Virus record (IMG/VR): IMGVR_UViG_3300028028_000001
Span: 1-64,000 of that record
Source of the DNA: a virus
Length of the DNA stretch: 64,000 bases
Strand: one strand, 5' to 3'
Shown here: in pieces, positions 31,944-49,777 of the stretch
How positions within the stretch are numbered: the stretch's first letter is position 1
Layout: each line of letters starts with the position of its first letter
The notes under the pieces: model-generated
Databases searched by the model: none
Seen by the model: only the letters and a program-made list of their open reading frames with translations
What the model was told of the DNA's origin: nothing
Program-made: the position numbers and the translations under genes

Positions 31944-33314
31944 ATGCCCTATAAAACCGTTCCGAAGCACCTCCACGGCTTGACCCTGGCCCAGGCCAAC
32001 CGCTGGGGGTCCGTGTTTGATGCGGTTCAGGGCTCCACTGGCGACTCCGAGAAAGCGGCTCGGGTGGCTTGGGGGGTGATGAGGAAGGCTATCATGGCGG
32101 TCCGTGTTCCAGGCCATACCAGAAACGGACACTATGTGAAACCCTACCTGCGGATGATGGACCGCGCCGAGGCCCAGGCGGGACCAGGCGAGCGCATCGT
32201 TTACCGGGCGTCCAACGAGAACGCTCCCGAGGTCGGTACGCACTACACCGAGCAGAAGGAGCACGCGGTCGCCTACACCGATAATTCTGGTTTCGGTGGC
32301 TCAAAGGTCCATCGGTACGCGATCAAGCCGCAGAACGTGGCGGATACGGTCGGGGAGGAAAGGAACGGTCTTCGAGGACTGGCGCTTGCCTACCTGCGGG
32401 CGCTCGACCCTGAAGACGCGGCAGAGGTGAAGGAGAAGACCAGAAGACGACTTGGCGTGGATGACGACGAGCGGATCACGTCGAAGCACGTCGCGCAGGA
32501 TTGGGATGAGCGCGGGCTGACTCATGTCTTCCATGTTCTGGAGCACGATCCCCGGGTTGAACAGGCGATATCGCAGGTCCACGACTGGATCCGGTTTGAG
32601 GATGATTTCCCCGAGGGGTCGATTACCTGGAAGCGTCTTGGTGGAGAAAAGCCGATGAACAAGGGTCTTGTACTGGAGGCCTCAGATACCAACCCCGCAG
32701 TCAAGCGCTGGAAGCAGATCGATCGTGGCCACTCCGAGGAAGGGCACCGCTTCCTTTCGCGGGTCCATGCGGGCGGTGGGCAAATGGCCATCACCCAGGG
32801 CCATGCGGACGAGCCGCACGTCAAGAGGCTCCTTCGAGAAAAGTTGATTCAACTCAAGAGGAACCCGGGTCACCACTGGAACGAGTACACGGCGCACCTC
32901 ACGAAGGAGGGCACGAAGTACCATGAGGCCTATCGAGCCGCGCACGAGCAGACAGGAAAGCAGGAGAGCCTGTTCAAGGGCGTGGTCTGCATCTACATGA
33001 TCCGCAGTGACACGATGAGGAAAAGCATCCTTGAGAAGGCGGTTATCCCGGCGCTCGACATGGTTCCGGAGGACTTGGAGGAAGACGCTACCCCGAACAC
33101 CTGGACCGAGAACGGGTATACCGTCTCATGGCGACGGGGCAAGCGCGGGCATGGGTCGGTTACCTTCGAAGGGAACGGGCTGGCTATGCCGTTCGTGATG
33201 ACCGCTGCGGGCAAGAAGCACGCTCGGATCGTCGCAAGGGACGCGTCGGCGCTGTTGGCGAAGGGCAAGATCCCGCTTCTTGACGGGGTATTCAGGATGC
33301 GGAGAAAGACATGA
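31944..33314 (+). CDS. multidomain protein with ChaB-like N-terminus
   Basis: AGGAG-like Shine-Dalgarno sequence. 'MPYKTVPKHLHGLTLAQANRWGSVFDAV...AARVAWGVMRK' parallels ChaB (MPYK...LP..AQ...F..A...A..VAW). Followed by 'VRVPGHTRNGHYVKPYLR' and an internal 'QESLF'. Confidence 0.6.
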   Translation: MPYKTVPKHLHGLTLAQANRWGSVFDAVQGSTGDSEKAARVAWGVMRKAIMAVRVPGHTRNGHYVKPYLRMMDRAEAQAGPGERIVYRASNENAPEVGTHYTEQKEHAVAYTDNSGFGGSKVHRYAIKPQNVADTVGEERNGLRGLALAYLRALDPEDAAEVKEKTRRRLGVDDDERITSKHVAQDWDERGLTHVFHVLEHDPRVEQAISQVHDWIRFEDDFPEGSITWKRLGGEKPMNKGLVLEASDTNPAVKRWKQIDRGHSEEGHRFLSRVHAGGGQMAITQGHADEPHVKRLLREKLIQLKRNPGHHWNEYTAHLTKEGTKYHEAYRAAHEQTGKQESLFKGVVCIYMIRSDTMRKSILEKAVIPALDMVPEDLEEDATPNTWTENGYTVSWRRGKRGHGSVTFEGNGLAMPFVMTAAGKKHARIVARDASALLAKGKIPLLDGVFRMRRKT

Positions 33315-35122
33315 ACCAGATCGCGAATCAGCCGGGCGTTCATCTTGACCATTTGAAGCATAGGTGGGTTCGAGATGAGGACGTGAAACCAGGCACGCGG
33401 TTTTATGTGCCTCACCATGAGGAATTGGACGTTCGGTCTGTCAAAGACGGGAAGGCAGAGGTGGGTTTGGTTGGCCACCCCATCACTGTGGACGTGCCTG
33501 AAAAGTCGGTGAAGTACTTTCATGCAGACATGCATGGGCAGTTGAACCACAAGCCCGATAGTGGCAACGAGCATGTTGACGCCGTAATTAGAGGGGAGGG
33601 TGAACACCTCGGCAAGGGCAACGACGGGATCGTTTATCGCCACGGGGAGAAAGTGGTCAAGGTCTCAACGACCGTCCCTTACCAGCCCTTCAACCGTGGG
33701 CAGCACAGGACTCCAGAGGAAGCCCTACGGCATCTTCAAAAGGAGCACGAGGCCCATACGGCACTCCAGGGGATTCCTGGCGTGCCCGAAGTGGATGGGC
33801 AAGAGCATGAGGGGCGATACTGGATGGTTAAGCCGCATCTTTCGCCTACTGGCGTGGTCGATGAAAAAGAAGCACATCAGGTGCGCGATTCCGTCCGGGC
33901 CATGCACGCGAAGGGATGGGTTCTGGGCGATACCGTGCAGGTTGGCCGAGACAAGTCGGGCGGCATCCAGTTCATGGACCTCGGGTCTGCTCACAAGTCG
34001 GATAGCGACTACCAAAGAGAGCACGACGAAGAAAGGTTGGCCTCGTTCTTCCATCTTCATCGGTTGAAGTACACGGATCCCCCTGCTGAAGTACAGAAAA
34101 AGGAGCGGGTAGCACGCACTCTCCTGGACATGGCCATCAAACACCAGGATCCGGAAAAGGTCAGGGCGCATCGTATTGAGTGGAAACGACTGGCGAGCGA
34201 ACACAGGATGAACCTCGTCAGAAAAGACGACTTCGACGGGATGATGGCGTTTGCGGACATTACCGATGCGATGGAGAAACGGCTTGAAAAGGCCATCTTC
34301 CTCAACGGCCAAAAGCGCAACCCCAAGGACTTCGACGAAGCCGCCCTATCTCAAGGCATCCGCGTGGAGATGGAGCACACCGACGATCCGAAGATCGCGA
34401 TAGAGATCGCGATGGATCACCTTGCCGAGCGTCCGGACTACTACGATCGGCTGGAAGAGATGGAAGCGAAGCCGATTCAAAAAGCCATCCTCTCCGGGAT
34501 CCGCTTTATGTACCTACTACGCAAGTCTCAGCTCAACCTCTTCGACTGGCACGGCGAACCCGTCCAGCACGAGCACCGCGAGCCGATCCCCACCAGGCCA
34601 CGCATGGGACCGGGCCCCCTGTTCGCCGAAGAGCGAGCGTCGGCGCCCGTGCATGCCCCGCTGCCCCCTATGCCTCCTCCGACCTCGCACACCTTCACCT
34701 CCAATATTCACGTCAAGAGCCACCTTCGGCGCCTGCCGTCGGGTGAAGTGGTGGAGGTAGCCGCGCACGAGAGAACAGCCGATCGGGTAACCCACGACGA
34801 TCCGAAGCCCCGGCAGACGAAGATCACAGAGTACGCCGACAAGCCGGCGCTCTTGAAGCCGCCTTCCATGGCACCGCAGCCCCGAGAGATGCCGAAGCCC
34901 TTCACGGAAGAGCAGTTAAAAGCGATTGGAGAGGCACGGGTGCGCCAAGAGGCGGCCGGCGGAACTCCGGGACAAGGAAGGCCCTGGGTACGATGGCCCA
35001 GCCAACCAGCGCCTCTCTGCTGCGAAAGCGGGGAGACTTGGGCCCGCGCACCGGGCAGCGGCAAAGAGCGCCCCGTGGACCTCGCAGGGCGTCCTGCTCC
35101 GATGGCAGCAACTGGCGATTGA
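33311..35122 (+). CDS. protein-kinase-like domain plus 'EMEHTDDP...DHLAERPDYYDRL' (DUF5661-like) protein
   Basis: Gly-loop 'LGKGNDGIVY', Lys 'KVVKVS', 'MHAKGWVLGDTVQVGRDKSGGIQFMDLGSA' (catalytic-loop and DxG-like). The last roughly 60 codons look non-coding and overlap the next ORF. Confidence 0.55.
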   Translation: MNQIANQPGVHLDHLKHRWVRDEDVKPGTRFYVPHHEELDVRSVKDGKAEVGLVGHPITVDVPEKSVKYFHADMHGQLNHKPDSGNEHVDAVIRGEGEHLGKGNDGIVYRHGEKVVKVSTTVPYQPFNRGQHRTPEEALRHLQKEHEAHTALQGIPGVPEVDGQEHEGRYWMVKPHLSPTGVVDEKEAHQVRDSVRAMHAKGWVLGDTVQVGRDKSGGIQFMDLGSAHKSDSDYQREHDEERLASFFHLHRLKYTDPPAEVQKKERVARTLLDMAIKHQDPEKVRAHRIEWKRLASEHRMNLVRKDDFDGMMAFADITDAMEKRLEKAIFLNGQKRNPKDFDEAALSQGIRVEMEHTDDPKIAIEIAMDHLAERPDYYDRLEEMEAKPIQKAILSGIRFMYLLRKSQLNLFDWHGEPVQHEHREPIPTRPRMGPGPLFAEERASAPVHAPLPPMPPPTSHTFTSNIHVKSHLRRLPSGEVVEVAAHERTADRVTHDDPKPRQTKITEYADKPALLKPPSMAPQPREMPKPFTEEQLKAIGEARVRQEAAGGTPGQGRPWVRWPSQPAPLCCESGETWARAPGSGKERPVDLAGRPAPMAATGD

Positions 35123-35819
35123 CCCTCGCCTGTTGGATGATGAGTTCGCCGACGACTTCCCCGGATACAAGAGCCCGAAGCTCCAGGCGGTCATCCAGGC
35201 CACGAAGGACCACCTGACGAATCACCCCGAAACCGGCGCCGTGCTTTTCTGTGAGTACAACGGCGGGATTGAGGCGATGAAGTCGAGCCTGATCGAGGAA
35301 GGCTACCGCCCCGAGGACATCGGGGTCTATACGGGCAAGGTGTCAAGCCAGCGGAAACGGCGCGACCTTCAGAACGACCTGAACAGCGGCAAGATCAAGA
35401 TCCTCCTTGGCAACACGGCGGCACTTGAGACGGGCGCGAACCTCCAGAAACGCGCTAACTTTGTCGCTCATCTCAACACGCCATGGGCCCCGGATCGGCT
35501 TGTCCAGTCAACCGGGCGAGTCCATCGGCAAGGGCAGGAACGGAAGGTTACCGTATTTCGCCCGACCGGATCCGAGGTAGAAGAACTCATCGAGCGCGTT
35601 GTCTCGCGCAAGCTCCTTCAATCCTCACAGGCGACCGGCGTAACGATGGCCGCTGACTCTCATGTAGCTGTCTCCATGCGCCGAAAGGGCCGCGAAAAGC
35701 TCGACTCCTCCACGATCGCGAAACTGCTGGGAATCGACCCGTCGCTGTTGTCGCAGAAGGGCGATGAAGCAGAACGCGAGGCCGCAGAGATCAAGGAAAT
35801 GAAGAAGAGGAAGAAATGA
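34926..35819 (+). CDS. orphan SNF2/SF2 helicase C-terminal half
   Basis: 'LLRWQQLAIDPRLL', 'SPKLQAVIQATKDHL', 'AVLFCEY', 'ILLGNTAALETGANLQ', 'HLNTPWAPDRLVQSTGRVHRQGQ' correspond to motifs IV-VI. No motif I/II partner lies upstream. TTG start; stop ATGA-coupled to the next gene. Confidence 0.6.
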   Translation: MERHGCAKRRPAELRDKEGPGYDGPANQRLSAAKAGRLGPAHRAAAKSAPWTSQGVLLRWQQLAIDPRLLDDEFADDFPGYKSPKLQAVIQATKDHLTNHPETGAVLFCEYNGGIEAMKSSLIEEGYRPEDIGVYTGKVSSQRKRRDLQNDLNSGKIKILLGNTAALETGANLQKRANFVAHLNTPWAPDRLVQSTGRVHRQGQERKVTVFRPTGSEVEELIERVVSRKLLQSSQATGVTMAADSHVAVSMRRKGREKLDSSTIAKLLGIDPSLLSQKGDEAEREAAEIKEMKKRKK

Positions 35820-37537
35820 ACGACTCCGAAGCCACGAATCTCCTGCGCGCCTTGGCCCCCGTCGGTGGGTCTCCTGGTGGGTTCGACCCCAAGAAGCGCC
35901 GCGTGCTCGTCATGCGGCTTCATCGGTATCTGGTGGAGGATGGCGGCTACATCCCAGCGTGGCTCAAGAACGAGGCGGCCGAGATGCGGAAGGGCGTGAT
36001 CCTTTACGTCGAGTTGCACAAGGCCGCTCAACTTGGGCTCTTCGGTGGTCAGGGTCGGGAGTTTCGCCCGGAGGTGCCGAAGCCGCATGGTGGTGGTAAG
36101 CCTCGTGGGCCGCAGCAGACCGGGATGACCTCGGGCGGGCTCTTCGGCACGGTCTGGGTCAAGGACCATGATCGGGTGGTGAATGGGCACGTCGAGCACG
36201 TTGACGGTCATGAGAGGAAGGTGGTGGGGAATGTCCACGCGCCCACGTTGACAGGAAAGGAGGAAGGTGGTAGGGTCGAGAGTGAACCTTCTCCGAAAGA
36301 GGAAAGCATGACCCGGCACCCTGACGCTCCGGAAGGATTCGAACCGGTTGACATGTCCATTCATGGAGCCCATAAGGCACCATCGAACGAAAAGGGGCAA
36401 CAGGGCTCTTTCAACTACTGGTATCCGACGCTGGAATCGGCTCGGGCAGGCCAGAAGCACCATGAAGAGCAGCAACGAGTAAAGGGGGATATGAAGCGGG
36501 CGCGGGAACATGAGAAGATCGCTCGCGGATCGGCAAAGTTCATTGAGGCTGAAACTCAACGAAGAGCAAAACTCGCGGCGGCAGAGATTCGGCGCACCGC
36601 TGTTCCTTTTGTTCACCCGAGTATCTATGAATATCGGGACTACATCAGAGAGCAGGGTGGTTTCGTGGAAGATGGTGGGTGGAAGGTGCCAGCCGCAGCT
36701 CACGCCGCCATTACGGAGCACATCGAGGAGCGGAATCGGAAATTGGCCATCAAGCGCCAAACGAAGCCATCAGTAACCCCACCGGTTCCGGCCGCACTGA
36801 AATACATACCCATACAGCACTCGAACACCTACGACTATCGGGAAGACATCAAGAAAGCCGGTGGTCGGTGGGACAATAACCAGCGGGTCTGGATGGTCCC
36901 GGAAAACAGGCATGCCGAACTAATCGCCAAGATGACGCCTGCGCCTGCGCCCCCTCCCGCAGCTCCTTTGCCGACGATCGCACCAGGAGAAAAGGAATAC
37001 ACCAGATTTGAGAATGGATCGCGTCGTATGAAGCCCGCTCATCCGTTGGCTGTCGGAGACGTGGTGTTTCGAGGGGATGGCGCAAACCGAACTTACCAGA
37101 CGGTCACGAAAGTAAGGCCTTCGCTCTTCCGTTCCGAAAACGATCAGGAGGACTTTGGAGAAACCGGAAGAGGTGCAGGTTGGTATCATCCGTATACCGT
37201 TCGACCTGCTACTGAGGAGGAATCGGCCAACCTCCGCGGCAAGCACGCAGAAGCAGACGCAAAGGTCAAGGCTGCGACTGCCGCAAAAATGGCGCTACAG
37301 TCAGCCATCCAGACGGCGGAATATCCGAAGAAGGCTGAACCATCAGGAGAGAGCATCAAGATTGGTCAAAATGAAACAATTCAGGTTGAGCCAGACCTTC
37401 AACACGCGTGGCACATCAAGTATAACGGTCGTGATGGCGACAACTGGGCCTACAACAACCTGGGCGGCCACTCGATCGCGCATCGGTTCCCAATGACTCC
37501 TGAACTATCAGGACACATCGAAGCGCTGAAAGTCTAA
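35816..37537 (+). CDS. multidomain protein with QLGLF module and two tandem 'GGxWD...WxVP' (DUF5710-like) domains
   Basis: 573 aa. 'YVELHKAAQLGLFGG', 'WVKDHDRVVNGHVEHVDGHERKV'. Repeats 'YEYRDYIREQGGFVEDGGWKVP' and 'YDYREDIKKAGGRWDNNQRVWMVP'. Confidence 0.6.
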   Translation: MNDSEATNLLRALAPVGGSPGGFDPKKRRVLVMRLHRYLVEDGGYIPAWLKNEAAEMRKGVILYVELHKAAQLGLFGGQGREFRPEVPKPHGGGKPRGPQQTGMTSGGLFGTVWVKDHDRVVNGHVEHVDGHERKVVGNVHAPTLTGKEEGGRVESEPSPKEESMTRHPDAPEGFEPVDMSIHGAHKAPSNEKGQQGSFNYWYPTLESARAGQKHHEEQQRVKGDMKRAREHEKIARGSAKFIEAETQRRAKLAAAEIRRTAVPFVHPSIYEYRDYIREQGGFVEDGGWKVPAAAHAAITEHIEERNRKLAIKRQTKPSVTPPVPAALKYIPIQHSNTYDYREDIKKAGGRWDNNQRVWMVPENRHAELIAKMTPAPAPPPAAPLPTIAPGEKEYTRFENGSRRMKPAHPLAVGDVVFRGDGANRTYQTVTKVRPSLFRSENDQEDFGETGRGAGWYHPYTVRPATEEESANLRGKHAEADAKVKAATAAKMALQSAIQTAEYPKKAEPSGESIKIGQNETIQVEPDLQHAWHIKYNGRDGDNWAYNNLGGHSIAHRFPMTPELSGHIEALKV

Positions 37538-37539
37538 TC

Positions 37540-37818
37540 GTGCTGCTTCTTTTCGTTCTCCTCCTCTCCTGCGCCCCAGAACCGCCAGAAGTCTGCAATA
37601 TGGTCTCCGTGCCCTGGGAGCGCTCGACGCTCAAGGCGATCGAGGTTTACCTCGACTACCTGCCCTGTGAGGCCACGATCGGCTGCGAGTCGCTTAACGG
37701 GACCGTGACGATTTACGACCTGGAGCCCGTTTGCGGAGTCGCCTGCCGGGTATACGGATCCTGCCGCCCGGACGAAACGCCGCTGGAACTTCGATACTCC
37801 GCGTGCGACTGCTCATAG
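37540..37818 (+). CDS. Cys-rich lipoprotein (92 aa)
   Basis: GTG start. 'LLLFVLLLSC' is a lipobox-like signal (L-L-S-C), followed by 7 further Cys. Confidence 0.5.
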   Translation: MLLLFVLLLSCAPEPPEVCNMVSVPWERSTLKAIEVYLDYLPCEATIGCESLNGTVTIYDLEPVCGVACRVYGSCRPDETPLELRYSACDCS

Positions 37819-38625
37819 CAGCGTAGTTTGCTCCCGCTCCTCATCCTGGCCCATTGGCAGACCTATCTGAACGCCAGCGGCCTCGATGCTCTCCAACCTG
37901 CGCGCCGCGATGTCGAGATAAGCCGGCTCCGTCTCGATCCCGATGTACTGGCGCCCAGAGAGTAATGCAGCCTCTCCGATGGCCCCAGAACCTGCGAAAG
38001 GGTCAAGGACCGTGCCGCCATGGGTCACGACGGAAACGAGCCACGCGCAGACCCTTGGGGGCTTTTCGGTGACGTGCTCGCGGTCCCTTGAAGACGCCTC
38101 GGTGACGTAACCGGGCAGGCAGCCGATCCCTGGTCTGTCGGTCGGCATCGGTCCAAGGGTTCCGACGGCGATGAATTCGCCCGGGTTCCAGAACCAGCCC
38201 ATCCGAGGCCTTGACGATCCGGGAGGCTTCAACCACGGGTGGATCCCGCGAAGGATGAACCCGCCCACTTGGAGCGCATCACAGACCGCGCCAACCTGCC
38301 GCCAGTCGGAAAAGACGCATGCCGGACTGCCGGGGAGCATGACCCGAGTCGCACGGGCCGCAATCTCCCCAAGCCAGATCGTGAAGGATCGCTGGTCTCG
38401 GTTGTCGCCTGCGAAGTTCGGAAGGTATTCGGCCTGCGCGGAATCGGAGCTGAGATACTTCTTGCGGGTGTCTAGCGTTCGATCACCACGGAAGGCACCC
38501 CCCGAAGAGTACGGGGGATCCGTGATCAGGGCGTCAACGCGGACGCGTTCGCGTTCGAGATCCGCGAGTACGAACAGGGAGTCGCCGTTGTAGAGTTTCC
38601 AGGTCTTTCCTTGGGCGTGTAGCAT
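37813..38625 (-). CDS. DNA methyltransferase (N6-adenine or N4-cytosine; DPPY before FxGxG)
   Basis: 'DALITDPPYSSG' (motif IV) lies near the N-terminus and 'VLDPFAGSGAIGEAA' (motif I) near the C-terminus. Only minus-strand gene in the right arm. Its stop overlaps the lipoprotein stop (TCATAG). Confidence 0.85.
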   Translation of the reverse strand: MLHAQGKTWKLYNGDSLFVLADLERERVRVDALITDPPYSSGGAFRGDRTLDTRKKYLSSDSAQAEYLPNFAGDNRDQRSFTIWLGEIAARATRVMLPGSPACVFSDWRQVGAVCDALQVGGFILRGIHPWLKPPGSSRPRMGWFWNPGEFIAVGTLGPMPTDRPGIGCLPGYVTEASSRDREHVTEKPPRVCAWLVSVVTHGGTVLDPFAGSGAIGEAALLSGRQYIGIETEPAYLDIAARRLESIEAAGVQIGLPMGQDEEREQTTLL

Positions 38626-38790
38626 GGTGGAAGTGTAACACGTTGCATGGAGAGGTCAAGGTGGCACGGTCTTTGCTACACCTTTCAGTGAAAGGAAAGA
38701 CCATGGAAACCCTCATCGCGGCGGGATCGGCTCCGGCCATCCTCATGTCGAGTTCTTCGTTCCCGTCTACCGAATCCACGCGAGCAAGCC

Positions 38791-39006
38791 ATGACCTGCC
38801 CCCGCTGCCACCAGCAATTCACCCCGACAGCAGAGGAGTCCAAGTGCCCCGACTGCGAGCGGGAGATCCTTCGTCGCAGGTACGAGATCGCCAGGATCCG
38901 CCGACATGGCGAGACCTGGCTTCTCGTCTCCCCGCGCCATGTTCTCGCGGGTGGGTTCGCCTCGCGCGAGCAGGCCGAGAGGTTCCGTTCCGCCAGGGTG
39001 GGGTAG
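38791..39006 (+). CDS. zinc-ribbon protein (71 aa)
   Basis: 'CPRC...CPDC' pair. Confidence 0.5.
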   Translation: MTCPRCHQQFTPTAEESKCPDCEREILRRRYEIARIRRHGETWLLVSPRHVLAGGFASREQAERFRSARVG

Positions 39007-39013
39007 ATCCGGA

Positions 39014-39511
39014 ATGGACCTCTTCAACCATCAAGGCGCCGTCTTCTCGGAGGATCGCGTCTACCGCTATCGGCTCTGGCGGCATCCTCCTGATACCCGG
39101 TTCGCCGCGTTCATCGGGCTCAACCCGAGCACCGCTGACGAAACCCAGAACGACCCGACCGTGACCCGTTGTATCGGGTTCGCTCGGTCGTGGGGTCTTG
39201 CGGGCATGGAGATGTTGAACCTTTACGGGTTTCGCTCGACGGATCCCGATCCGATGTTCAAGCACTCTGCTCCTATAGGACCGGGCAACGACGAGGCGAT
39301 CCTGGCGGTCGCTCGTGAGGCGTCGATCGTGATCGGCTGCTGGGGCGCGTTTCCTCAAGCCCGCATCCGTGCTATCGAGGTTCATAGGATGCTTTCCTCT
39401 GCCGGTATCGTGCTTCATGCTCTGCAATTGACTTCGCAGGGTTGGCCTCGGCATCCTCTCTACCTCTGCCGAGACCGGGAGCCCTTTCCATGGAGGATCC
39501 CTGCGGGGTAA
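39014..39511 (+). CDS. DUF1643-like protein
   Basis: Internal ATG of ORF 38906..39511. 'FSEDRVYRYRLWR...AFIGLNPSTADETQNDPTVTRCIGFARSWGLAGMEMLNLYGFRSTDP' matches the DUF1643 pattern I recall (YRY.L.R...NPS.AD...DDPT...NL). Confidence 0.6.
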   Translation: MDLFNHQGAVFSEDRVYRYRLWRHPPDTRFAAFIGLNPSTADETQNDPTVTRCIGFARSWGLAGMEMLNLYGFRSTDPDPMFKHSAPIGPGNDEAILAVAREASIVIGCWGAFPQARIRAIEVHRMLSSAGIVLHALQLTSQGWPRHPLYLCRDREPFPWRIPAG

Positions 39512-39537
39512 AGAGGTAACACCATTCGAGGGTTCCC

Positions 39538-41871
39538 ATGCACCTCTATCGCCCCGTTCGATCCGCTGACGGTTCTCTTTCGCTACGTGCCTCGGAACTG
39601 GTCTTCCGTCGCCCCGATGTGGCCCCCCGCGAGCTGCGCAAGGCCCTTCGTCTTCCGATCGGCATCGGCTGGCGTGACATCGACCAGGACGTGGACGGTG
39701 GCAAGGAGAAGAGGATCGTGGAGTGGGGAACGGTCTCCCGCTACTGGCCCTCACTCGAAGCCGCCATGGCCGCAGAACGGCGCTACCTGATCCTCGGGTC
39801 GCAGGATGACGGCTACGGGATTCCCCAGGTCGAGCGGCCCGGGTCGGTCCAGGCCTGGGAAGCACGGGAGCGCGCCCGTTCGGCTCATGAGATGGTGATC
39901 TACTACTCGCCCGACGGGTGGACGGCTCTTGCTGGTGACGAGCACGGTGGGCAGGTCAAGGTGCTCGACGACTGCCGCGCGTACCGCTGGCCCTCGCTCA
40001 TGGACGCGCTCTCTGCTGAGACGGCGTGGAGAGAGAAGGCGGACGCCGCGACCCTCAAACAGGTCCAGGCCGAAGCGCGCGGTGGAGAACCGAAGCCTTC
40101 GTTCTACGGTTACGGCGCGTTCATGGACGCGGCGCGGAAGTGTGCGGAGTTCATGGCGCTTGCGGATCCGGGTGTCGGGGCGCCTCTCGTTCGGTTCACG
40201 GTGGACCTTCGCAAGGCCGCTCAAATGGGGTTGTTCGGAGGGGAGACACGGATCCCGGAGCGGTCGCATCAAATGGGCCTCTTCGGTGGGACCGCGCACG
40301 TCAAGGCGCATACCCGGGTGGTCCATGGGCATGTGATCGAGGTGAAGGCCCATGATCGGGAGGTCGAGCATGGGGCGAACCATCCTCCCGAGGTGATGGG
40401 GCACTCGGCGCCGGGACATCGGGTGGATGTGGATGCGAAGGTGGCATGGCCAGAAGTCAAAGAAGGCAACCTGTACCGCATCCATTTCGACACCCGCGAC
40501 GAAGGCCAGCCGCACGGCGACTATATCGCCAAACGAGCCTCGACGAATCATCACCAGTTCGAGAACCTTCTCAACGGCGCCCCCATGATGTTGAACCGGG
40601 ATGCGGAAGGGCAGGGGAAGCACAGTCTGAGCGGCAAGGAAGGTGTCAGGATCCGAAGCGTTACAGGGTTTGAGGATGCTCTGGATGAGGCGAAAGCCAA
40701 GCATGAGATCATCCGAAAGGACGCGGAACGGGCGGCTTTGGCACCGAAGGTTGAGGAGAAGCCCTCCATTTCCGTCGATCCGGCCCAAATCGTCAAACCA
40801 GCGGACATTCAACCACCGGGCCCCATTCGTGACTACACCGACATGAAGCCATCGGTCGGTATGAAGGTTCACGGGCACTACATGCGGTCACCCTTCACCG
40901 GCACGGTCCATAACATCGAATCCGACTCAAGCGGATACCCTGGCACCCAGAACGATCGCAGGTTGTGGGTGAAACTTGATAGCCCCCTGGTGGTCCCGGA
41001 AGGTGATTCGTCATACCCCGCCGGTCACGTTCGGCGCGAGGCAGGGGAAAGCATCATTTTCCACGGGGAAAAACAGGCGTCAGGACATACACGGGTTCAT
41101 CATGACACCCATCAAACCCTGGATTCGGTAGATAATCCGCTTCCTGGGTTGGTGCCCTTCGTAACAGACTACGATTCACGAAAGAAAACCCATACCCTGT
41201 CCGTGAACGGGAAGATGTCGAGCCATCCGACGCATGAAGCCGCGTTTGCTGCGGGGATGGAGGAGGTCAAGCCCACAACGCAACTTATCACCGAAGATGA
41301 GCTGAGAGAGCAGACCATCAAGCCCCCACCCAAGCCCACCCTATCCGTCAAACCTGCGGAAATCGTTCAGGTTATACCGGGTATGGAGCACGAACATCCG
41401 GACTTTCCAGGCCACCGGTTGACCCGTGTGCAAACCCGGGAGAGGGACATCAGTTCCCGTGGTCGGGGACATGATTTATACACAATGATTGCCGGCCCAG
41501 AAGATGACACAATGCACTGGAGCGACAAGCATGTTGGCCATGAAGTAATTTCGGACGATTATCCAAGGTCAAGGTCCATACGATCAAGCGATAGACATGG
41601 TGAAACCTATGCGCATATGCCGCTCAAGCCCGGTAGTGTGATTATGCGTCTCAAAAAGAATACCGACGGGACAACCCAGAAGTCTGCGTTAGTTGTTCCG
41701 GAAAGTGGAGGAGACACATACCCAAGACACAAAGATCAACCACTGGACGCCGATAGTTTGCCGTCTGCAACGGTAACCTCACGCAAAGCGGCTACTGGAT
41801 GGGAAACTGTAGTAGATATCCCCGAAGGGATATCGGGTGTCAAGGCTGGTAAGCGAATTTACCGAGGATAG
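39538..41871 (+). CDS. large multidomain protein (777 aa) with two QMGLF modules
   Basis: 'TVDLRKAAQMGLFGGETRIPERSHQMGLFGGTAHVKAHTRVVHGHVIEVKAHDREV'. I recognised nothing in the remainder, and the distal part has lower GC. Confidence 0.6.
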   Translation: MHLYRPVRSADGSLSLRASELVFRRPDVAPRELRKALRLPIGIGWRDIDQDVDGGKEKRIVEWGTVSRYWPSLEAAMAAERRYLILGSQDDGYGIPQVERPGSVQAWEARERARSAHEMVIYYSPDGWTALAGDEHGGQVKVLDDCRAYRWPSLMDALSAETAWREKADAATLKQVQAEARGGEPKPSFYGYGAFMDAARKCAEFMALADPGVGAPLVRFTVDLRKAAQMGLFGGETRIPERSHQMGLFGGTAHVKAHTRVVHGHVIEVKAHDREVEHGANHPPEVMGHSAPGHRVDVDAKVAWPEVKEGNLYRIHFDTRDEGQPHGDYIAKRASTNHHQFENLLNGAPMMLNRDAEGQGKHSLSGKEGVRIRSVTGFEDALDEAKAKHEIIRKDAERAALAPKVEEKPSISVDPAQIVKPADIQPPGPIRDYTDMKPSVGMKVHGHYMRSPFTGTVHNIESDSSGYPGTQNDRRLWVKLDSPLVVPEGDSSYPAGHVRREAGESIIFHGEKQASGHTRVHHDTHQTLDSVDNPLPGLVPFVTDYDSRKKTHTLSVNGKMSSHPTHEAAFAAGMEEVKPTTQLITEDELREQTIKPPPKPTLSVKPAEIVQVIPGMEHEHPDFPGHRLTRVQTRERDISSRGRGHDLYTMIAGPEDDTMHWSDKHVGHEVISDDYPRSRSIRSSDRHGETYAHMPLKPGSVIMRLKKNTDGTTQKSALVVPESGGDTYPRHKDQPLDADSLPSATVTSRKAATGWETVVDIPEGISGVKAGKRIYRG

Positions 41872-41874
41872 CCC

Positions 41875-44800
41875 ATGTTCACCCCCTGCAAGTGCTCCAA
41901 AGGCTGCAAGGCCCACGCCATCATCACAGCGCTCGACATGGACGGGACCACCTACCCTGTGCGAGTCCCCTATGAGCACCGCTACTCCTCGATCGGCTGG
42001 GGCGACCGTCCGCGCGTGCGGTTCGGTGATTCCGTAGCCGTCGAAGTGGCGCGCGGAGAGAAGGGCGTCCAGGCTCTTGACGAACTCGGCAACCTTCACC
42101 GGTTGAACCATGGCGCGTTCTCCACCTGGATTCCGGAAAGGAAGGGCAAGGCTCTCAAAAAGGCGGAAGTCAAAGCCGGTCAACGATGGATCACGGTCCA
42201 CCCCGGCGGCGAAGGCTCAACGGGCGTCCCCATCCTGATTCAGGAGGAGAAGGACGGAACCCACCGAGTCGTGGCAGGCGCGGGCGGGAAACTGACGCAC
42301 CTCCGGCTTGAGAACGTCAAGAGCGCGGACGAATACGCCAAGTCCAAAGCCGACAAGAAGGCCGCAAAGAAAGAGAAGGACAAGACCGCTCCGAAGGAAG
42401 TCAAGGAGACCAAGAAGGAAGCCCACGAGAAGAAGCGCGAGGCCGAGCGCCAGTTCGTCAAAAAGGTGAGCACGAAACTCGGGGGAGTCTCCGAGGATCG
42501 CAAGCGTGACGAATCCGAATCTCCCGCCGTCGCACGTCGGCTTGACGCGCAGCATCATCGAAAGCAGGTCAACGAGGCCAAGAAGCGCGCCCACGGAGCC
42601 ATGCAGGCGGTCGTTGCAGAGCGGACCGGGCAGGAGAGGGCAAAGGCGCTCACCTCCGAGGATACTCCCGAGGTCTCCGCTCACGTTCAGGAAACGATTC
42701 GCGCAGAACTCGACGACGAGGAAGCCGCTCAGAAGGCGCGCAAGGAAGCCCGCGCGCCAAAGATGATGGCCTCCCGGGCCGTGGACCCCGGAGCGCAAGA
42801 GAAAGCCGTCGTCCATGCCGTTGAAGCGGTCAAGCAGGCCCCTGAGCAGCTCGACAAGACACTTGAAGCGCTCGGCGGGCGTACTGACTCGGGCGAGGTT
42901 CTCCGGCTCTCTGTCGTGCCTGCCGTGGAGGCGAAACGCCGGTCCCTGCAAGCGCTCCAGGACGCCCAGATCATCCATGAAGCCCTATCGAACGGGCCCC
43001 CGAAAGACGAGAAGCAGCAGGCGATCGTGGAGCAGGCCCTGGGCGGCGCGAAACTCGGAACCGAGGAGGCCAAGGAAGCACTCCAGACCGCCATGGTCTC
43101 GAAGGTCAACGAAGCCGAGCGGCACGAAGTCCAGTCCAGGAAGCTCGACCAGATCGCACGGGACAAGGGCGAAGACGTGGCCGACCGTGCTCTCCGGGCG
43201 ACCGACGCGGCAAGGGCCATCGCTCGCGAAACACAGGAAGCGCGGCGCCTGGGACTCGACAATCCCGAGAAGACGCCCCTTACTGTGCCTGAAACCGATG
43301 AACTCATGGACGTGGTGAAGGACCTCCAGGACCTGAAAGCGAAGACCCGAGCCCTGAAGAACGTCGTCAAGGACGCGGAAAAGGGCAACTTCGATCGGTC
43401 GCGCCGTGCGTTCAAGATGGACGTTCAAGCGGCCCCCAAAGACGTGGAGATGTCGATCGAGGAAGAGGTTCAGCGCTCACTCACGGAGCAGCTCCTCGGC
43501 GCGGTCAAGACCGATCGCCCGGAGTACATCCAGGGCGTCACCGCTGGGCACTATGACGCCCTCGCGGATGTCGGCTTGCAGATTGGCGGCCAGCGCTACC
43601 TGGACCGCCCCACGGTGGACGCTCTCGGCGCGAAGAATGCCGCGATCCTACTCCGGTATGGGCTTGACCAGGACGGGCACGATATGGACGCCGTTCGCCA
43701 GGCCGTGGAAGAGTCGCACGTTGACGCGGTGAAAACCGAAGCCGCCAAAGCCATCGAGAAAGCGCGATCCTACGTCCCTGGGTTGGTCCACGAAGTCGAT
43801 ACAACCGAAGACGCCGAAGCAGCAATGGCGCACTTGGACGCCCACGAATCCGAGATCGTCTCAGCGCAGAAGGCCCTTTCCTCGGCGATCGGGAGGCTCG
43901 AAGGTACGGCTACCCTTGGCCAGGCGCTGCGCGACAAGATGCCCGATAGCCTTTCCGTTCGGGGCACCTCTCTTGAATCGTCTCAGCAGTGGGTTCATTC
44001 GCTCGGGCTTCACCCTGCCGATTACGAGGTGAACGCTGCACGGAACGAGATTACGATCCCCCGCCGATCGTGGGACAAACTGCTATCCCGAGACTCGCGC
44101 GAGGACATCGACAACCGGCGCGTGGTCAACGAGATCAAGGCAGGTCAGCACGACATCAAGGGTTGGCTTCCTCCCGGCATTGCCTATCGAGAGGCCTCCA
44201 CGTTCACCGCGCCCGTTCCCAGCGCTCCTCGCATGTGGGAACCGCTTTCGTTCGATGGCGACCTCGACGAGGCCATCAAGACACACGTCGGCGCCCGGTT
44301 GGCATCCGGTGAGCATATCGGGGAGATTGCGTCTGACATCTCCTCGGAAGGTGTTGCTTCGCAGGCCCCGAGCGCGAAGGAATACCGCGCGGCACTCGAG
44401 CGGCACTTCCCTCTCTACAAGGAAGGTGGAAAGGAACGGCTCACCGAAGCCCTGGCGGCTCTTGGACCTCGGCCGGAGAACGAGAACGAGGCGATCGAGT
44501 GGGACCGAAAAGCCATTAAGGCGGAGCAAGCGGAAAAGGTAGGCCTGACGCACTTCGCCGACAAGTGGGAGTCCTGGGCCCAGGACTACATGGAAAAGAA
44601 GCACGGTGGCGAGGGAGCCTATCACTCGCAGAACCTGCATCCCGAGGACGTGGCGACCCGTGAGGCCATTTTCCGGACGCTGGCGGATCACCCGGAGGGC
44701 AAGATCGCCTTCAAGCCGTCGGGTCAACTGACACCGCAGGAAGAGGGGGTGATTCGGGACCGGTACTATCAGAGGATGGGGATCGACCCGAAGGTGAAGG

Positions 44801-47577
44801 TTGACGAGGCAAGGTTCCAAAGGGAGATGGCCCAGGCCAGTATGCCGGAAGGGCAGTGGGAGACCATGGTCAAGGAACACGAAGGAGAAGGCATAACTCC
44901 AGGGCAGGCCAAGGCCCGAGCCATGTCTCACCTTGGAGAGAAGGTCAAGAATGAGGCGTATTACCAAGAACTGACGAAACCATGGGACAAGACGGCTGGA
45001 ACTGCATCTATAGACGAACCAAAGGATGTAAAACAACGTCGCCAATACCTGACGCGCGAACTCGCCGCACTCGGGAAAGAGCCCGACCGCCAAGACAAAG
45101 AGGCCAACCAGAAATGGCAAGAAGCGCGTAATGCTGTTTTTGAAAAGGCCGACACCGATTCTGGCAAGGAAGAACTTGATGAGACCAGTCCCGAATACCG
45201 GGCTTGGCAAAAACGACGTGATGCTGTTCTTGCCCGTCATCCGCGAGCGGGTATGCAAAGCGCAATCGATAGTCTCGACAAAGCCGATCCGGAGTACGCA
45301 AGCAAAGTCGAAGCCATCAAACAGGACGCAGCGACCGCCCCCACCGCCTGGGGCAACTACGTTGAAGCGCACGGTTCGCGGCAACTGGCGATCGAGGCCC
45401 TGCAAGATGAGATGAGGGGCGAATTCGTCAAGACGTACCAGGAGCACCACGGAAAGGTCACCGGGAACCCGCTACGGGTGGGCGTTCAGGACGTAACCAA
45501 CAAGGCGCGCCATATCCGGGCAACAGGATCCCCCGAGGAAATCGCGCAAGCCAGGGCAGAGGAAAGGTCCAGGCTATCCAGTCTCCAGAAGAGGCAGGGC
45601 GGCGGATTTACCGAGATGGGCGGTGCAGGGTCGGCGAAAGCCCTGTTCACAAAAGCACTTGAACAAGACGAAATCGACAAGTCAAGTCAACTCGCTATGT
45701 TCGGATCGGCTACCTCCTCGGTGGCGGACCTCCCCGAAAAGAAGATCGAGCCGAAGACCGGCCAGCGGTGGAGTCTCGGAACCCGCGCGGAATCGCAACT
45801 TGAGAGCGTCATCAATGGCGGCCTGGGCCAGCAGTTTCAACCAGGAAGCCCGATCCGGCTTTTCGGTGGGCTCAACATGGATGGCGATCGAATCCACCAG
45901 CAGCGGGTTCTTCGCCAACTCGATCGGGTCAAAAGGATGGCGGCGCTTCTCGGCACGGGCGCGGGGAAGTCGCTCACCTCGATCGCAGGGTTCACCCAGG
46001 CGCACGCGAAGGGTGAGGCATCCCACGGGCTCTATCTGGTCCCTGCCGCAGTCCAAGACCAGTTCGGCGGCGAGATGTTGCGCTACACGCAGCCCGGGAA
46101 ATACAACTGGGCAACGGGTGGCGGAAAGAGCCACGCGGAACGGGTACGGATGCTCAAGGATCCGTCTATTCATATGCGGGTTATGACACACCAGTCCTTC
46201 CGGGATACTGCCCTAAAACTCATGGCAGACCACCATGGTCGGACTACCGAGAAGATGACAGAGGACTTCGGAAAGGCAGACCCAAAGACCCGCGCCCGGT
46301 GGATGCGTGAGGCCTTCGATGCCCACGGGATCCCCCGCCACTTCGTCTATTATGACGAGGCGCACACCGCGACCTCCGAGAACGAGAAGAGCGCCTCTCT
46401 GACTCATGACGTTGCGACGGCGGTAACGCATCCGTCGAACGCTACCCATCTGCTTCTCGGGACCGCCACCCCCACGAAGAACAACACCGGAGAGATGCAC
46501 TCATGGGCCTCGCTACTCGATCCGGACAAGTACGCCGATCGGTGGAAGTTCATGCAGAACTTTGGGAGGGAAACCGCCTGGAACCCGAACGCGATCCGTC
46601 AAGAACTTGGGCACCGGGTTTACACCGCCAGAATCGACCCCGAAGGAGTATCCCGAACAGACACCGACAACCCGACCGTGGAGGAAAAGGAAGTCCAGAC
46701 TGGTGAGAATATGTGGGGTCCAACCTACGAAAAGCAGAAGGTGAAGTCTGCCGGCAAGCCGATCGAACTTCACCCTACCCAGAAGGCCCGGGTAGATGAG
46801 ATCACGGCGGCTTATGAGCAGGCATCCACCTCGTTCAAGAAGGGCCATGTGGACGTGGAGAGCATCCGGAAAATCAACCCGGCACCGTTCGAGGGTAAGA
46901 CCGATGAGCAGGCCCAAAGCATCGCGCGGAACATGATGAAGGGCCTTGGCTTCACCCGTGACGCGGCGCTGGAGCGGGCGATCAACCGCTCGCCTGTGGG
47001 CCAGAACGCGAAACTGGACGCCCTGGCCTCTGTCGTCCAGCATGACCTCGCGCAGAACTGGACCGATCGGAAAGGCAACGCGCGCAAGGGGAAGGCCTCG
47101 ATCATCTTTTCGGACTCGGCGCAGGATGGAAAACTCATCAACCAGCACCTTCGCTCTCTTGGCGTCCGCTCGGCTTTCTATCACGGTGGGCTTCCGAACG
47201 AGCAGAAAGAAGCCATCCGCACCGGGTTCCAACCCGAGCAAGGCGAGCCGAAGCACGACGTTATCGTCGCCACGTCGGCGGCCGAGGCGGGTCTGAACCT
47301 CCAACGGGCAAGCGTGCTGCACAATTACGACGTGCCCCAGACTGAGAAGAGCCACGCGCAGAGAGCCGGGCGAGCGTACCGGCAGGGGCAACTTGGCGAC
47401 GTGGAGATTCACAACTGGCACACGAACACGGCGTTCGAGCGTCGGGCGCTTCAACTGCTCAAGGAGAAGCGGTATCTCGCTTCCGTGTTTCAGACTCCGA
47501 TCGGCCATATGGACGACACAGGAACGGGCCTGCGTTATACTCGGATCATCTCACGCAAACATGAGGCTGCGGCATGA
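41875..47577 (+). CDS. giant polyvalent/DarB-like protein (1900 aa) with C-terminal SNF2-type helicase
   Basis: N-terminal 'RWITVHPGGEGSTGVPILIQEEKDGTHRVVAGAGGKL'. A long Lys/Glu/Ala coiled region follows. Helicase motifs 'LLGTGAGKS', 'VYYDEAHT', 'LLLGTATP', 'QRAGRAYRQGQ' start at about 45,900. Confidence 0.8.
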   Translation: MFTPCKCSKGCKAHAIITALDMDGTTYPVRVPYEHRYSSIGWGDRPRVRFGDSVAVEVARGEKGVQALDELGNLHRLNHGAFSTWIPERKGKALKKAEVKAGQRWITVHPGGEGSTGVPILIQEEKDGTHRVVAGAGGKLTHLRLENVKSADEYAKSKADKKAAKKEKDKTAPKEVKETKKEAHEKKREAERQFVKKVSTKLGGVSEDRKRDESESPAVARRLDAQHHRKQVNEAKKRAHGAMQAVVAERTGQERAKALTSEDTPEVSAHVQETIRAELDDEEAAQKARKEARAPKMMASRAVDPGAQEKAVVHAVEAVKQAPEQLDKTLEALGGRTDSGEVLRLSVVPAVEAKRRSLQALQDAQIIHEALSNGPPKDEKQQAIVEQALGGAKLGTEEAKEALQTAMVSKVNEAERHEVQSRKLDQIARDKGEDVADRALRATDAARAIARETQEARRLGLDNPEKTPLTVPETDELMDVVKDLQDLKAKTRALKNVVKDAEKGNFDRSRRAFKMDVQAAPKDVEMSIEEEVQRSLTEQLLGAVKTDRPEYIQGVTAGHYDALADVGLQIGGQRYLDRPTVDALGAKNAAILLRYGLDQDGHDMDAVRQAVEESHVDAVKTEAAKAIEKARSYVPGLVHEVDTTEDAEAAMAHLDAHESEIVSAQKALSSAIGRLEGTATLGQALRDKMPDSLSVRGTSLESSQQWVHSLGLHPADYEVNAARNEITIPRRSWDKLLSRDSREDIDNRRVVNEIKAGQHDIKGWLPPGIAYREASTFTAPVPSAPRMWEPLSFDGDLDEAIKTHVGARLASGEHIGEIASDISSEGVASQAPSAKEYRAALERHFPLYKEGGKERLTEALAALGPRPENENEAIEWDRKAIKAEQAEKVGLTHFADKWESWAQDYMEKKHGGEGAYHSQNLHPEDVATREAIFRTLADHPEGKIAFKPSGQLTPQEEGVIRDRYYQRMGIDPKVKVDEARFQREMAQASMPEGQWETMVKEHEGEGITPGQAKARAMSHLGEKVKNEAYYQELTKPWDKTAGTASIDEPKDVKQRRQYLTRELAALGKEPDRQDKEANQKWQEARNAVFEKADTDSGKEELDETSPEYRAWQKRRDAVLARHPRAGMQSAIDSLDKADPEYASKVEAIKQDAATAPTAWGNYVEAHGSRQLAIEALQDEMRGEFVKTYQEHHGKVTGNPLRVGVQDVTNKARHIRATGSPEEIAQARAEERSRLSSLQKRQGGGFTEMGGAGSAKALFTKALEQDEIDKSSQLAMFGSATSSVADLPEKKIEPKTGQRWSLGTRAESQLESVINGGLGQQFQPGSPIRLFGGLNMDGDRIHQQRVLRQLDRVKRMAALLGTGAGKSLTSIAGFTQAHAKGEASHGLYLVPAAVQDQFGGEMLRYTQPGKYNWATGGGKSHAERVRMLKDPSIHMRVMTHQSFRDTALKLMADHHGRTTEKMTEDFGKADPKTRARWMREAFDAHGIPRHFVYYDEAHTATSENEKSASLTHDVATAVTHPSNATHLLLGTATPTKNNTGEMHSWASLLDPDKYADRWKFMQNFGRETAWNPNAIRQELGHRVYTARIDPEGVSRTDTDNPTVEEKEVQTGENMWGPTYEKQKVKSAGKPIELHPTQKARVDEITAAYEQASTSFKKGHVDVESIRKINPAPFEGKTDEQAQSIARNMMKGLGFTRDAALERAINRSPVGQNAKLDALASVVQHDLAQNWTDRKGNARKGKASIIFSDSAQDGKLINQHLRSLGVRSAFYHGGLPNEQKEAIRTGFQPEQGEPKHDVIVATSAAEAGLNLQRASVLHNYDVPQTEKSHAQRAGRAYRQGQLGDVEIHNWHTNTAFERRALQLLKEKRYLASVFQTPIGHMDDTGTGLRYTRIISRKHEAAA

Positions 47578-48244: not shown

Positions 48245-48286
48245 GGCCCTACCCGGATCCCCTCCCGGGTAGGGCCTTCTTTTGTT
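48245..48286 (+). terminator. rho-independent terminator
   Basis: Perfect 12-bp stem: GGCCCTACCCGG (48245-48256) with CCGGGTAGGGCC (48265-48276). The loop is 8 nt, followed by TTCTTTTGTT. Confidence 0.7.
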
Positions 48287-48293
48287 GGTACTC

Positions 48294-49079
48294 ATGTCGA
48301 TCCCCTTCGAACTCTCCGGATCCCTCCTCGCTCGCCCGCTCCGAAAAGCGGTGAGCGCGCGGACTCGTCCGCTTGAAGGGTTCCTGACTACCTACGGCGT
48401 ACTCAGCGAAAACGGCGGGATCATCCCGACCGCTGACCGAGACGGGCAGGTCATGGAAGCCGCCTCTGCTCTGGGGCTCATCGACTTTCAGGAGTACCTC
48501 CGAACCGGGCTCTGGAACGATACCCACGATGACACCGTGATTGTAGGGCGCTCCGATGGCCTGGAGTTTCACAACGGCTCGACGAAGTTGTCACAGGCTC
48601 ACCGGAAGGTCGGCTACTTCACGGCCGGGCACTTGTTCGACCCTGCGAACCCGGCTTCTTTCGGGGACTACAAGCCCTCGCCAAAGGAACTGGAACGCTC
48701 GGACTACTTCTGGGACCTCGCCAGCAGTACCCTGGGCGAAACCGATCGCGGGTTGGCTTTTTCGGCTCATGGCCGGATGTGGACCGACCCGACAAATACC
48801 AGGATTTTGACGGCGAAGATTGATCAGGTGGCGGTCTGCGAAACCCCGGTCAATCCCTACTGTCCTGCCGAGATCCCCGAAGTGTCGGCTGAACTTGCGA
48901 AGGCGGTCAAGAAGCCGACTGCTTCCTCTTTGCTTGCTTCCCTCAAACCGGAGACGCGGGAAAAGCTGGTCGCCATCATCAAGAAGCGTTTCCCCCATCT
49001 GTCAGACGCGGAGATCGATACCGTTCTTCTGAAACTGGCAGAAAACCACCACTATGGAGTAAAATCCGATGCCCAATGA
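48294..49079 (+). CDS. prohead protease (HK97-type serine protease-like)
   Basis: 'LEGFLTTYGVLSENGGII', 'LWNDTHDDTVIVG' (His) and 'GLAFSAHG' (Ser), in the order expected for HK97-family prohead proteases. Lies upstream of the scaffold and capsid genes. Confidence 0.6.
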   Translation: MSIPFELSGSLLARPLRKAVSARTRPLEGFLTTYGVLSENGGIIPTADRDGQVMEAASALGLIDFQEYLRTGLWNDTHDDTVIVGRSDGLEFHNGSTKLSQAHRKVGYFTAGHLFDPANPASFGDYKPSPKELERSDYFWDLASSTLGETDRGLAFSAHGRMWTDPTNTRILTAKIDQVAVCETPVNPYCPAEIPEVSAELAKAVKKPTASSLLASLKPETREKLVAIIKKRFPHLSDAEIDTVLLKLAENHHYGVKSDAQ

Positions 49080-49746: not shown

Positions 49747-49777
49747 TCCCATCCCAACCCCACAAGGACAAAACACC

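Follow-up and report, generated by a model that had tools for sequence, protein, structure and literature searches.

Why should large proteins encoded among the head genes of a bacteriophage carry short peptides of the kind by which polymerases and repair proteins hold on to the bacterial beta sliding clamp, DnaN? This question is raised by a 64,000-nucleotide stretch of DNA (hereafter, the window), namely positions 1 to 64,000 of IMG/VR virus record IMGVR_UViG_3300028028_000001, which is part of a ~96.5-kb metagenome-assembled phage genome and is placed under a Thermoleophilia metagenome-assembled genome. In an island of large genes, A, B, C, E and F (Table 1), a sequence-only reading had noticed six pentapeptides resembling clamp-binding motifs, namely QESLF in A, QLNLF in B, QLGLF in C, two copies of QMGLF in E and QLAMF in F. 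All six translate exactly, in the frames of real long open reading frames (ORFs). The five pentapeptides other than QESLF are quite possibly true clamp-binding peptides, although this falls a little short of being probable.

The canonical clamp motif is Q-aliphatic-x-[L/M]-[F/L] or the hexameric Q-aliphatic-x-[L/M]-x-[F/L], as in the listed motifs TLMTGQLGLF of Pol II, QLNLF of Pol V and IGQADMFGV of Pol III alpha, and known motifs have mostly negatively charged flanks (PMC11139829). The five strict copies in the window (QLNLF, QLGLF, QMGLF twice and QLAMF) all fit this definition and all have Leu or Met at position 4. Three of these pentapeptides are letter-identical to characterised motifs: QLGLF to that of E. 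coli Pol II and QLNLF to that of E. coli UmuC, identities which had been rightly given in the sequence-only reading (PMC11139829), and QMGLF to that of B. subtilis DnaE, which binds DnaN in fluorescence polarisation assays, ~20-fold more weakly than QLSLF (PMC12309361). QESLF, already regarded as the weakest match, departs from the canonical definition by its Glu at position 2, and the 25 residues downstream of it are hydrophobic, unlike a linker; this peptide probably lies outside the motif family.

Strict Q[LM]x[LM]F matches are strongly enriched in the island proteins. Shuffling of the five proteins (4309 residues, 20000 shuffles) gives an expectation of 0.026 matches against the five observed, and no shuffle reached five (0/20000), so that an earlier rough estimate of 0.1 chance hits was conservative. 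Elsewhere in the six frames of the 64 kb no strict match occurs, the five island sites being the only ones. Genes called over ~82 kb of the ~96.5-kb genome contain seven hits to the broader canonical definition (either form given above), five of them in the island; the two extras are probably irrelevant, one being QIVLRF of a Gad2-like protein, the sole hexameric string of this kind beyond the island, and the other QVPML of the sheath protein. A duplicated [VIL]xx[HY]xR element, noted together with the motifs, is present in four copies in the six frames of the window, all inside the island. The motif copies of C and E had also been said to share an extended context, which is confirmed over 15 residues (YVELHKAAQLGLFGG and TVDLRKAAQMGLFGG). 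The corresponding DNA is 76% identical over 41 nucleotides and the codon-wise differences are mostly synonymous, so that the peptide has been kept by selection and not by recent duplication.

Conservation in distant relatives provides a further line of evidence. A search with the helicase part of F, aligned to five homologues, brought up 80 IMG/VR loci, which were taken with 10-kb flanks, and at the junction preceding the helicase the form Q-[ML]-[GAS]-[FLM]-F is found in 51 of 51 distinct junction sequences (49 IMG/VR loci, PHB04 and Cumys), with Gln and Phe invariant. The linker between the motif and the helicase start is ~20 residues long, acidic or rich in Pro/Ala, variable in sequence and length, and rich in indels. 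The orthologues with the motif at this junction come from phages of three phyla, and variants include the window's own QLAMF, the QMALF and QALLL of Thermus phages Cumys and Lalka27a, respectively, and the QMGFF of the proteobacterial group. In P0002, a relative with 42% identity, Q-x-x-MFG[AG] stands there four times in tandem, and in Mecenats66 the site is deleted. Judged by these alignments, the motif is under selection.

The motif family extends beyond the helicase junction. DarB-like methylase-SNF2 helicases of the clade (~2000 residues) start M-[IL]-[IV]-[LF]-[FL]-x-K-[SA]-QLALFD-[AT]-P-VHV-[AG]-AHVRKDG-x-VV-x-PHVR; in every one of them the motif lies within a strand-hairpin tag, described below, inside the first 15 residues, and usually Q-x-S-LF or T-L-D-LF elements, one or two in number, come in the 70 residues that follow, within about 110 residues in all. 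The closest relatives of the window phage (L007 and L008) keep the window-type layout, e.g., MIMVRILVQALVKGE-QLGMFGG-Pro/Ala linker-VNVKAHMRVGAHGVELVTQHER. Of 148 non-redundant family copies, 84% have Gly, Ser, Asp or Ala directly after Phe, and small or acidic residues come next. The DarB-like protein of Lalka27a (L095) opens with EQPALFA, and within its N-terminal 70 residues QPTLWEAA then occurs twice among Pro/Lys-rich spacers, with Trp in place of Phe.

Searches with the modules themselves returned little. A profile of five module copies gave nothing significant in 5.8 billion proteins, and exhaustive HMMER searches with four window modules gave the window proteins, one true relative (P0009, which has three tags but lacks the motif) and four spurious matches, all to repeat or zinc-finger proteins. 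The modules in tblastn against the phage collection gave nothing, or the query's own record only, and a search for related loci with protein F alone found nothing.

Exposure of the motifs is suggested by composition and by alignment. In B, QLNLF is followed by Asp and a Pro/Gly-rich linker; in C, the 25 residues past the motif are 48% Pro/Gly; and the linker of F is the indel-rich one described above. The motifs also lie in coil of low predicted local distance difference test (pLDDT) score in AlphaFold2 models that are themselves poor. The model of C, built from a single sequence (mean pLDDT 50), has pLDDT <50 at residues 60-176 and a low-confidence beta-hairpin at residues 125-137, and that of F, built for residues 1111-1900 from a three-sequence alignment (mean pLDDT 44), has QLAMF in its lowest-confidence coil. 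A search with an F fragment found only two homologues, and the sole match of E in 5.8 billion proteins is E itself. The proposal that the motifs lie at domain junctions is supported for B, where the motif comes after DUF5661, and for F, where it is ~25 residues ahead of the conserved helicase start; it is plausible for C and E, the AlphaFold2 models of C and F being too poor for domain borders to be drawn.

The V-x-x-H-x-R element is the hairpin core of a separate tag, N-terminal or at junctions, of head-cargo 'polyvalent' proteins in a ~90-kb myophage clade. The tag consists of a hydrophobic strand ending in K[AS] and then a basic beta-hairpin, [VI]-x-[GA]-[HY]-x-R...G-x-x-V...H-x-R, and no Pfam family covers it. 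Tags are found in window proteins A, B, C and E (Table 1) and in relatives L007-L086, L001, L087 and L093, in which the carriers include InPase, Zeta-toxin, RadC and NUDIX proteins, as assigned by Pfam, and one annotated (p)ppGpp synthetase. The motif-free form (~25-40 residues) is [IL]LF[FL]K[SA]-HV-x-[GA]-YTRKDGT-x-V-x-x-H-x-DKR and stands N-terminally or at internal fusion junctions. The motif and the V-x-x-H-x-R element had been taken for one module, but are separable, because small tagged effectors (InPase, Zeta toxin, NUDIX and (p)ppGpp synthetase) carry the tag without Q-x-x-L-F, and the helicase junction carries the motif without the tag. Within the island, a hairpin follows the motif in B, C and E, as had been described, but not in F, where none is nearby, nor in A, where the hairpin (residues 54-70) is ~270 residues upstream of QESLF. 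The pattern of the A tag is akin to the proteobacterial tag HVxGYTRKDGTxVxPHxR, but its hidden Markov model score is weak (E = 5.1). Relative to the tag, Q-x-x-L-F is an optional peptide, either inserted into it or adjacent to it.

The tag is a better candidate than the motif for a capsid-loading signal, by analogy with the N-terminal 30-residue targeting sequence of P1 DarB (PMC9024508). A NUDIX protein of Yersinia phage fHe-Yen8-01 has the tag at its start (MLKAQIKGYMRRDGVYVKPHD) and no motif, and yet bears the annotation 'particle associated', which indicates that the motif is not needed for virion association in this phage. On plasmids, searches for the tag gave four weak matches only, and both tag and motif are missing from a DarB-like protein of a conjugative plasmid. 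The island proteins are most likely packed in the phage head and delivered with the DNA; their injection is deduced from gene position, the domain repertoire of the relatives and the 'particle associated' annotation in one relative. The order of portal, large enzymes and protease-scaffold-capsid genes is found also in Bordetella phage PHB04 and Morganella phage Mecenats66, and its helicase and protease-scaffold-capsid portion in Thermus phage Cumys. Recognised domains in the window proteins are limited to the SNF2 helicase, DUF5661 and a sub-threshold DUF5710 match, and family searches gave no recognised polyvalent-protein domain in A, C and E.

A clamp is encoded by the phage itself. A full-length dnaN homologue of 355 residues lies on the minus strand, 7.8-8.9 kb left of window position 1 (L090:19327-20394), on a contig that shares 11.5 kb with the window at 100% identity. 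The phage DnaN matches solved beta clamps at E = 1e-36 and is 30% identical overall to E. coli DnaN; identical residues number 11 of 12 in subsite I and 5 of 8 in subsite II, by the pocket residue list of PMC11139829, and the pocket changes relative to E. coli are H175S, V344L and M364I. The early region near dnaN includes SSB, RecU-like and SbcC-like genes. The ~82 kb showed no DNA polymerase. The related Thermus phages named Lalka likewise have a beta clamp gene and lack a recognisable DNA polymerase, and the Lalka clamp pocket is more diverged (L155F, H175Y, M362V and Y323Q).

Overall, the sequence-only interpretation is partly supported: the identification of the pentapeptides as clamp-binding-type motifs has gained indirect support from their fit to the definition, their distant conservation and the pocket of the phage DnaN, and the view of motif and hairpin as one module was wrong. 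Several observations weigh against clamp binding. QMGFF, the commonest orthologous variant, has Phe at position 4, where known natural motifs have only Leu or Met and where Phe weakened inhibition in peptide studies (PMC11139829). Neighbouring LF elements without Gln (GGLFG, GMFGG, DDMFGG and TPDLF) are common, the motif is set in a longer conserved context (strand-K[AS]-motif-GG) which clamp binding does not need, and the arrays are tandem, which is unusual for clamp motifs. The carriers include ART-PolyVal proteins of relatives and B, C and E of the window, all without known DNA activity. The motif is absent from the conjugative-plasmid DarB-like protein (pVAPA1600, 2963 residues) and from P1 DarB, and thus is not a general requirement of DarB-like enzymes; its restriction to the clade suits a phage-internal partner equally well. 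Also, both AlphaFold2 models being of low confidence, exposure rests mainly on composition and indel-rich alignments.

Another partner, a conserved host or phage protein different from the clamp, or an FG-repeat-like 'sticker' role in condensing cargo within the head, with the clamp resemblance being convergent in either case, is rather unlikely. Many copies without Gln (GMFGGGGMFGGG, DDMFGG and TPDLF) and the occurrence of repeats in Pro/Ala/Gly-rich low-complexity linkers would be consistent with these readings, as would P1 internal head protein DdrB (L092), which has QGDMF and GDMFGGG (residues 355 and 407), akin to the second junction motif DDMFGG of the relatives. Gln-less copies are also compatible with clamp binding because the LF pair alone is able to bind subsite I of the clamp (PMC11139829). 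The invariance of Gln at the best-sampled site argues against these readings, and no candidate partner is known.

It is also rather unlikely that capsid loading is the function of the motif itself, in which case Q-x-x-[LMF]-F would dock cargo inside the procapsid, on scaffold, capsid protein, portal or other cargo, with multiple copies giving avidity, in the manner of the T4 IPIII and P1 DarB capsid targeting sequences or of the peptides by which encapsulins are loaded. The genes of all carriers lie between the portal gene and those for protease, scaffold and capsid, homology of the head genes across the clade makes a conserved phage partner possible, and the motif is limited to the phage clade and missing from the plasmid DarB-like protein. 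[quoted passage not shown] Against this, the tag alone seems sufficient, as small tagged effectors, one of them annotated as virion-associated, have no motif. In F orthologues, 950-1500 residues separate the motif from the N-terminus, where at least one of these proteins carries a tag of its own. Capsid loading would also leave the invariant Gln and the exact match to clamp motifs as an unexplained coincidence. The targeting sequence of P1 DarB is unrelated in sequence; its core, MGVFR, was considered as a relative of [LM]G[LMV]F and dropped, since these residues are not conserved in DarB of phage D6.

A processing site, at which the prohead protease or another phage peptidase would cut after Phe to free a targeting strand or to separate domains, had been offered as an alternative from the start, and is very unlikely. 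The T4 prohead protease removes N-terminal capsid targeting sequences, and the protease of staphylococcal phage 80alpha cuts after Phe. Proteolytic processing of polyvalent proteins has been proposed (Iyer et al., 2017; PMC5512222), and the location of the motif at junctions and the small or Asp residue that follows Phe in most family copies are as at many cleavage sites. This alternative is weakened by the distribution of the motif in the clade, where none of the 63 prohead proteases or 49 scaffolds has it, one capsid protein in 59 does, and it is found in 2 of 16 portals. In addition, three sites in the first 110 residues of the methylase-helicases would have no obvious purpose, and no metallopeptidase domain was detected in A, B, C, E, F or the DUF1643 protein. 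Finally, chance, or a by-product of recent segment duplication among paralogous genes, for which the 15-residue context common to C and E would speak, is extremely improbable and effectively refuted by the shuffling result, the mostly synonymous divergence of these two copies and the retention of the motif in ~50 distant orthologues.

With clamp binding as the preferred reading, we infer the binding, its partner and its consequence along the following lines. The strand-hairpin tag would serve as the capsid-loading signal. The Leu/Met-Phe pair of the motif would then dock in hydrophobic subsite I of the clamp, and Gln and the aliphatic residue in subsite II, the partner being host DnaN, the phage DnaN homologue, or both. 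Docking would tether DNA-acting cargo (the SNF2 helicase F here, a DarB-like methylase-helicase in relatives) to clamp-loaded DNA, or would compete with host polymerases for the clamp.

A more elaborate proposal, which we regard as improbable, is a private clamp system, in which virion-delivered enzymes with clamp-binding peptides are combined with the phage's own DnaN, altered at the residue that bridges the subsites (His175 to Ser; Tyr in Lalka27a). Possibly, the injected peptide arrays would saturate the clamps of the host, whose replication and repair would stall, with the phage clamp escaping. It is also possible that phage helicases and methylases ride phage-loaded clamps and thereby mark and protect replicating phage DNA, like DNMT1 on PCNA. 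'Poisoning' of the host clamp, as suggested in the sequence-only reading, is pure speculation.

No paper was found in the literature searched that links clamp-binding motifs with DarB, polyvalent or virion cargo proteins. If the peptides bind DnaN, they would be the first virion-delivered phage effectors addressed to the sliding clamp. Clamp binding would account for the presence of a clamp in phages without DNA polymerase, such as the Lalka phages and, as far as the ~82 kb seen here extend, the window phage, and would give DarB-like anti-restriction enzymes a route to find DNA. The arrays would also be natural multivalent ligands for the clamp, which is a validated antibiotic target. The tag is a candidate portable capsid-loading signal, shared by NUDIX, InPase, Zeta toxin, ADP-ribosyltransferase and methylase-helicase proteins, and if it has this function it would be useful for loading foreign proteins. 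Both ideas are directly testable with short peptides and with the cultured relatives PHB04, Dolphis, ECML-606-1 and fHe-Yen8-01.

The features of the window are collected in Table 1. The island genes had been described as five consecutive genes, which is not strictly so, because an N6/N4 DNA methyltransferase gene and a DUF1643 gene split the cargo block between C and E; these two genes look like inserted morons. Behind B, an overlapping ORF in another frame encodes an SNF2 helicase of which just the C-terminal half (RecA2, Helicase_C) is present; it is either the remnant of a helicase, frame-shifted or truncated and now fused behind B, or the result of an assembly indel. By eye, B seemed to have a protein kinase in its N-terminal half, which Pfam, PHROGs, NCBIfam and PDB searches did not support. 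Putative tail genes come after the capsid gene block.

Table 1. Coordinates of the cargo block, its peptides and neighbouring genes, counted from the first nucleotide of the window (aa, amino acids)
Feature	Position	Strand	Description
Gad2-like gene	3013-3939	-	PF26128 per precomputed Pfam annotation on another assembly; carries QIVLRF
Large terminase	23067-24962		
Portal gene	26152-27861	+	PHROG portal matches; left boundary of head-cargo block
Gene directly 3' of portal	27858-28991	+	377 aa; weak SPP1 gp7/MuF-like match (E = 0.0035, below cut-off)
Ala/Gly/Thr-rich protein gene	29418-31877	+	819 aa; zero family matches
Protein A	31944-33314	+	456 aa; tag-like hairpin near N-terminus; QESLF; zero family matches
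Tag of A	32079-32153	+	MRKAIMAV, then hairpin RVPGHTRNGHYVKPYLR; no Q-x-x-L-F insert
QESLF of A	32961-32975	+	Weakest match; non-aliphatic residue at position 2
Protein B	33311-35122	+	603 aa; DUF5661 (aa 346-387), then module
Tag of B, strand to hairpin	34499-34774	+	
Module of B	34499-34543	+	Hydrophobic strand IRFMYLLRKS, then QLNLF (34529-34543)
Hairpin of B	34709-34774	+	HVKSHLRRLPSGEVVEVAAHER
Overlapping helicase ORF	34926-35819	+	Other frame; overlaps end of B
Protein C	35816-37537	+	573 aa; module at aa 62-134, then DUF5710 match below Pfam cut-off
Tag of C, strand to hairpin	35999-36217	+	
Module of C	35999-36049	+	Strand ILYVELHKAA, then QLGLFGG; QLGLF at 36029-36043
Second LF element and hairpin of C	36134-36217	+	GGLFGT immediately before hairpin WVKDHDRVVNGHVEHVDGHER
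N6/N4 DNA methyltransferase gene	37813-38625	-	
DUF1643 gene	38906-39511	+	
Protein E	39538-41871	+	777 aa; orphan; zero family matches
Module and tag of E	40189-40359	+	VRFTVDLRKAA, QMGLFGG, 11-aa spacer, second QMGLFGG, hairpin HVKAHTRVVHGHVIEVKAHDR
QMGLF copies of E	40222-40236 and 40270-40284	+	
Protein F	41875-47577	+	1900 aa; long uncharacterised N-terminal region, C-terminal SNF2-type helicase
N-terminal element of F	42150-42260	+	aa ~93-125; KAGQRWITVHPGGEGSTGVPILIQE, presumably similar to the start motif of other large phage cargo proteins
Motif of F, QLAMFGS	45688-45708	+	QLAMF at 45688-45702; ~20-aa linker, then conserved helicase start RWSLGTRAE
Putative prohead protease, scaffold and major capsid protein	48282-51379	+	Right boundary of cargo block; all without motif
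Candidate clamp ligands			12-16-mer motif-spanning peptides: ...HKAAQLGLFGGQG, ...RKAAQMGLFGGET, ...LRKSQLNLFDWHG, ...DKSSQLAMFGSAT

Like the clamp-binding motifs of bacterial proteins (Pol II, Pol III alpha, Pol IV, Pol V, Hda, MutS/MutL, and B. subtilis DnaE/PolC), the phage peptides have the form Q-aliphatic-x-[L/M]-F, stand in linkers or near termini, and are followed by small or acidic residues after Phe; in Pol III alpha, the motif at an internal site, IGQADMFGV, has the trailing Gly that is seen in the phage motifs. Unlike the bacterial motifs, they are carried by phage head-cargo proteins rather than by replication or repair enzymes, they form arrays of up to four copies adjoining the strand-hairpin tag, and most proteobacterial orthologues have Phe at position 4. 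Tn7 TnsE and insertion-sequence transposases also use the host clamp. MuC of phage Mu, in late transcription, likewise is a mobile-element protein which recruits the beta clamp via a clamp-binding motif (PMC12867686). These mobile-element proteins differ in being made after infection and in having a single motif, and none of them is known to be a virion-delivered effector or to be accompanied by a phage-encoded clamp.

The relatives of the window phage share with the polyvalent proteins (PMC5512222) the domains ART-PolyVal, InPase, Zeta toxin, RadC, NUDIX and LPD1 and the methylase-SNF2 helicase pair, and the genes stand beside head morphogenesis genes; in the window, F has the SNF2 helicase. 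The paper on polyvalent proteins makes no mention of clamp binding, linkers or an N-terminal tag (PMC5512222), and P1 DarB and the plasmid DarB-like protein, unlike the DarB-like enzymes of the present clade, have neither tag nor motif. The tag shows no sequence similarity to the P1 DarB signal; P1 DarB, which begins MNKLSMGVFRCSS..., lacks the tag as well as Q-x-x-L-F, and its GVF is not kept in D6. The tag resembles the targeting sequences known from T4 internal proteins and from P1 DarB (PMC9024508) in being short, N-terminal and common to unrelated cargo enzymes; unlike them, this candidate packaging signal stands also internally, at fusion junctions.

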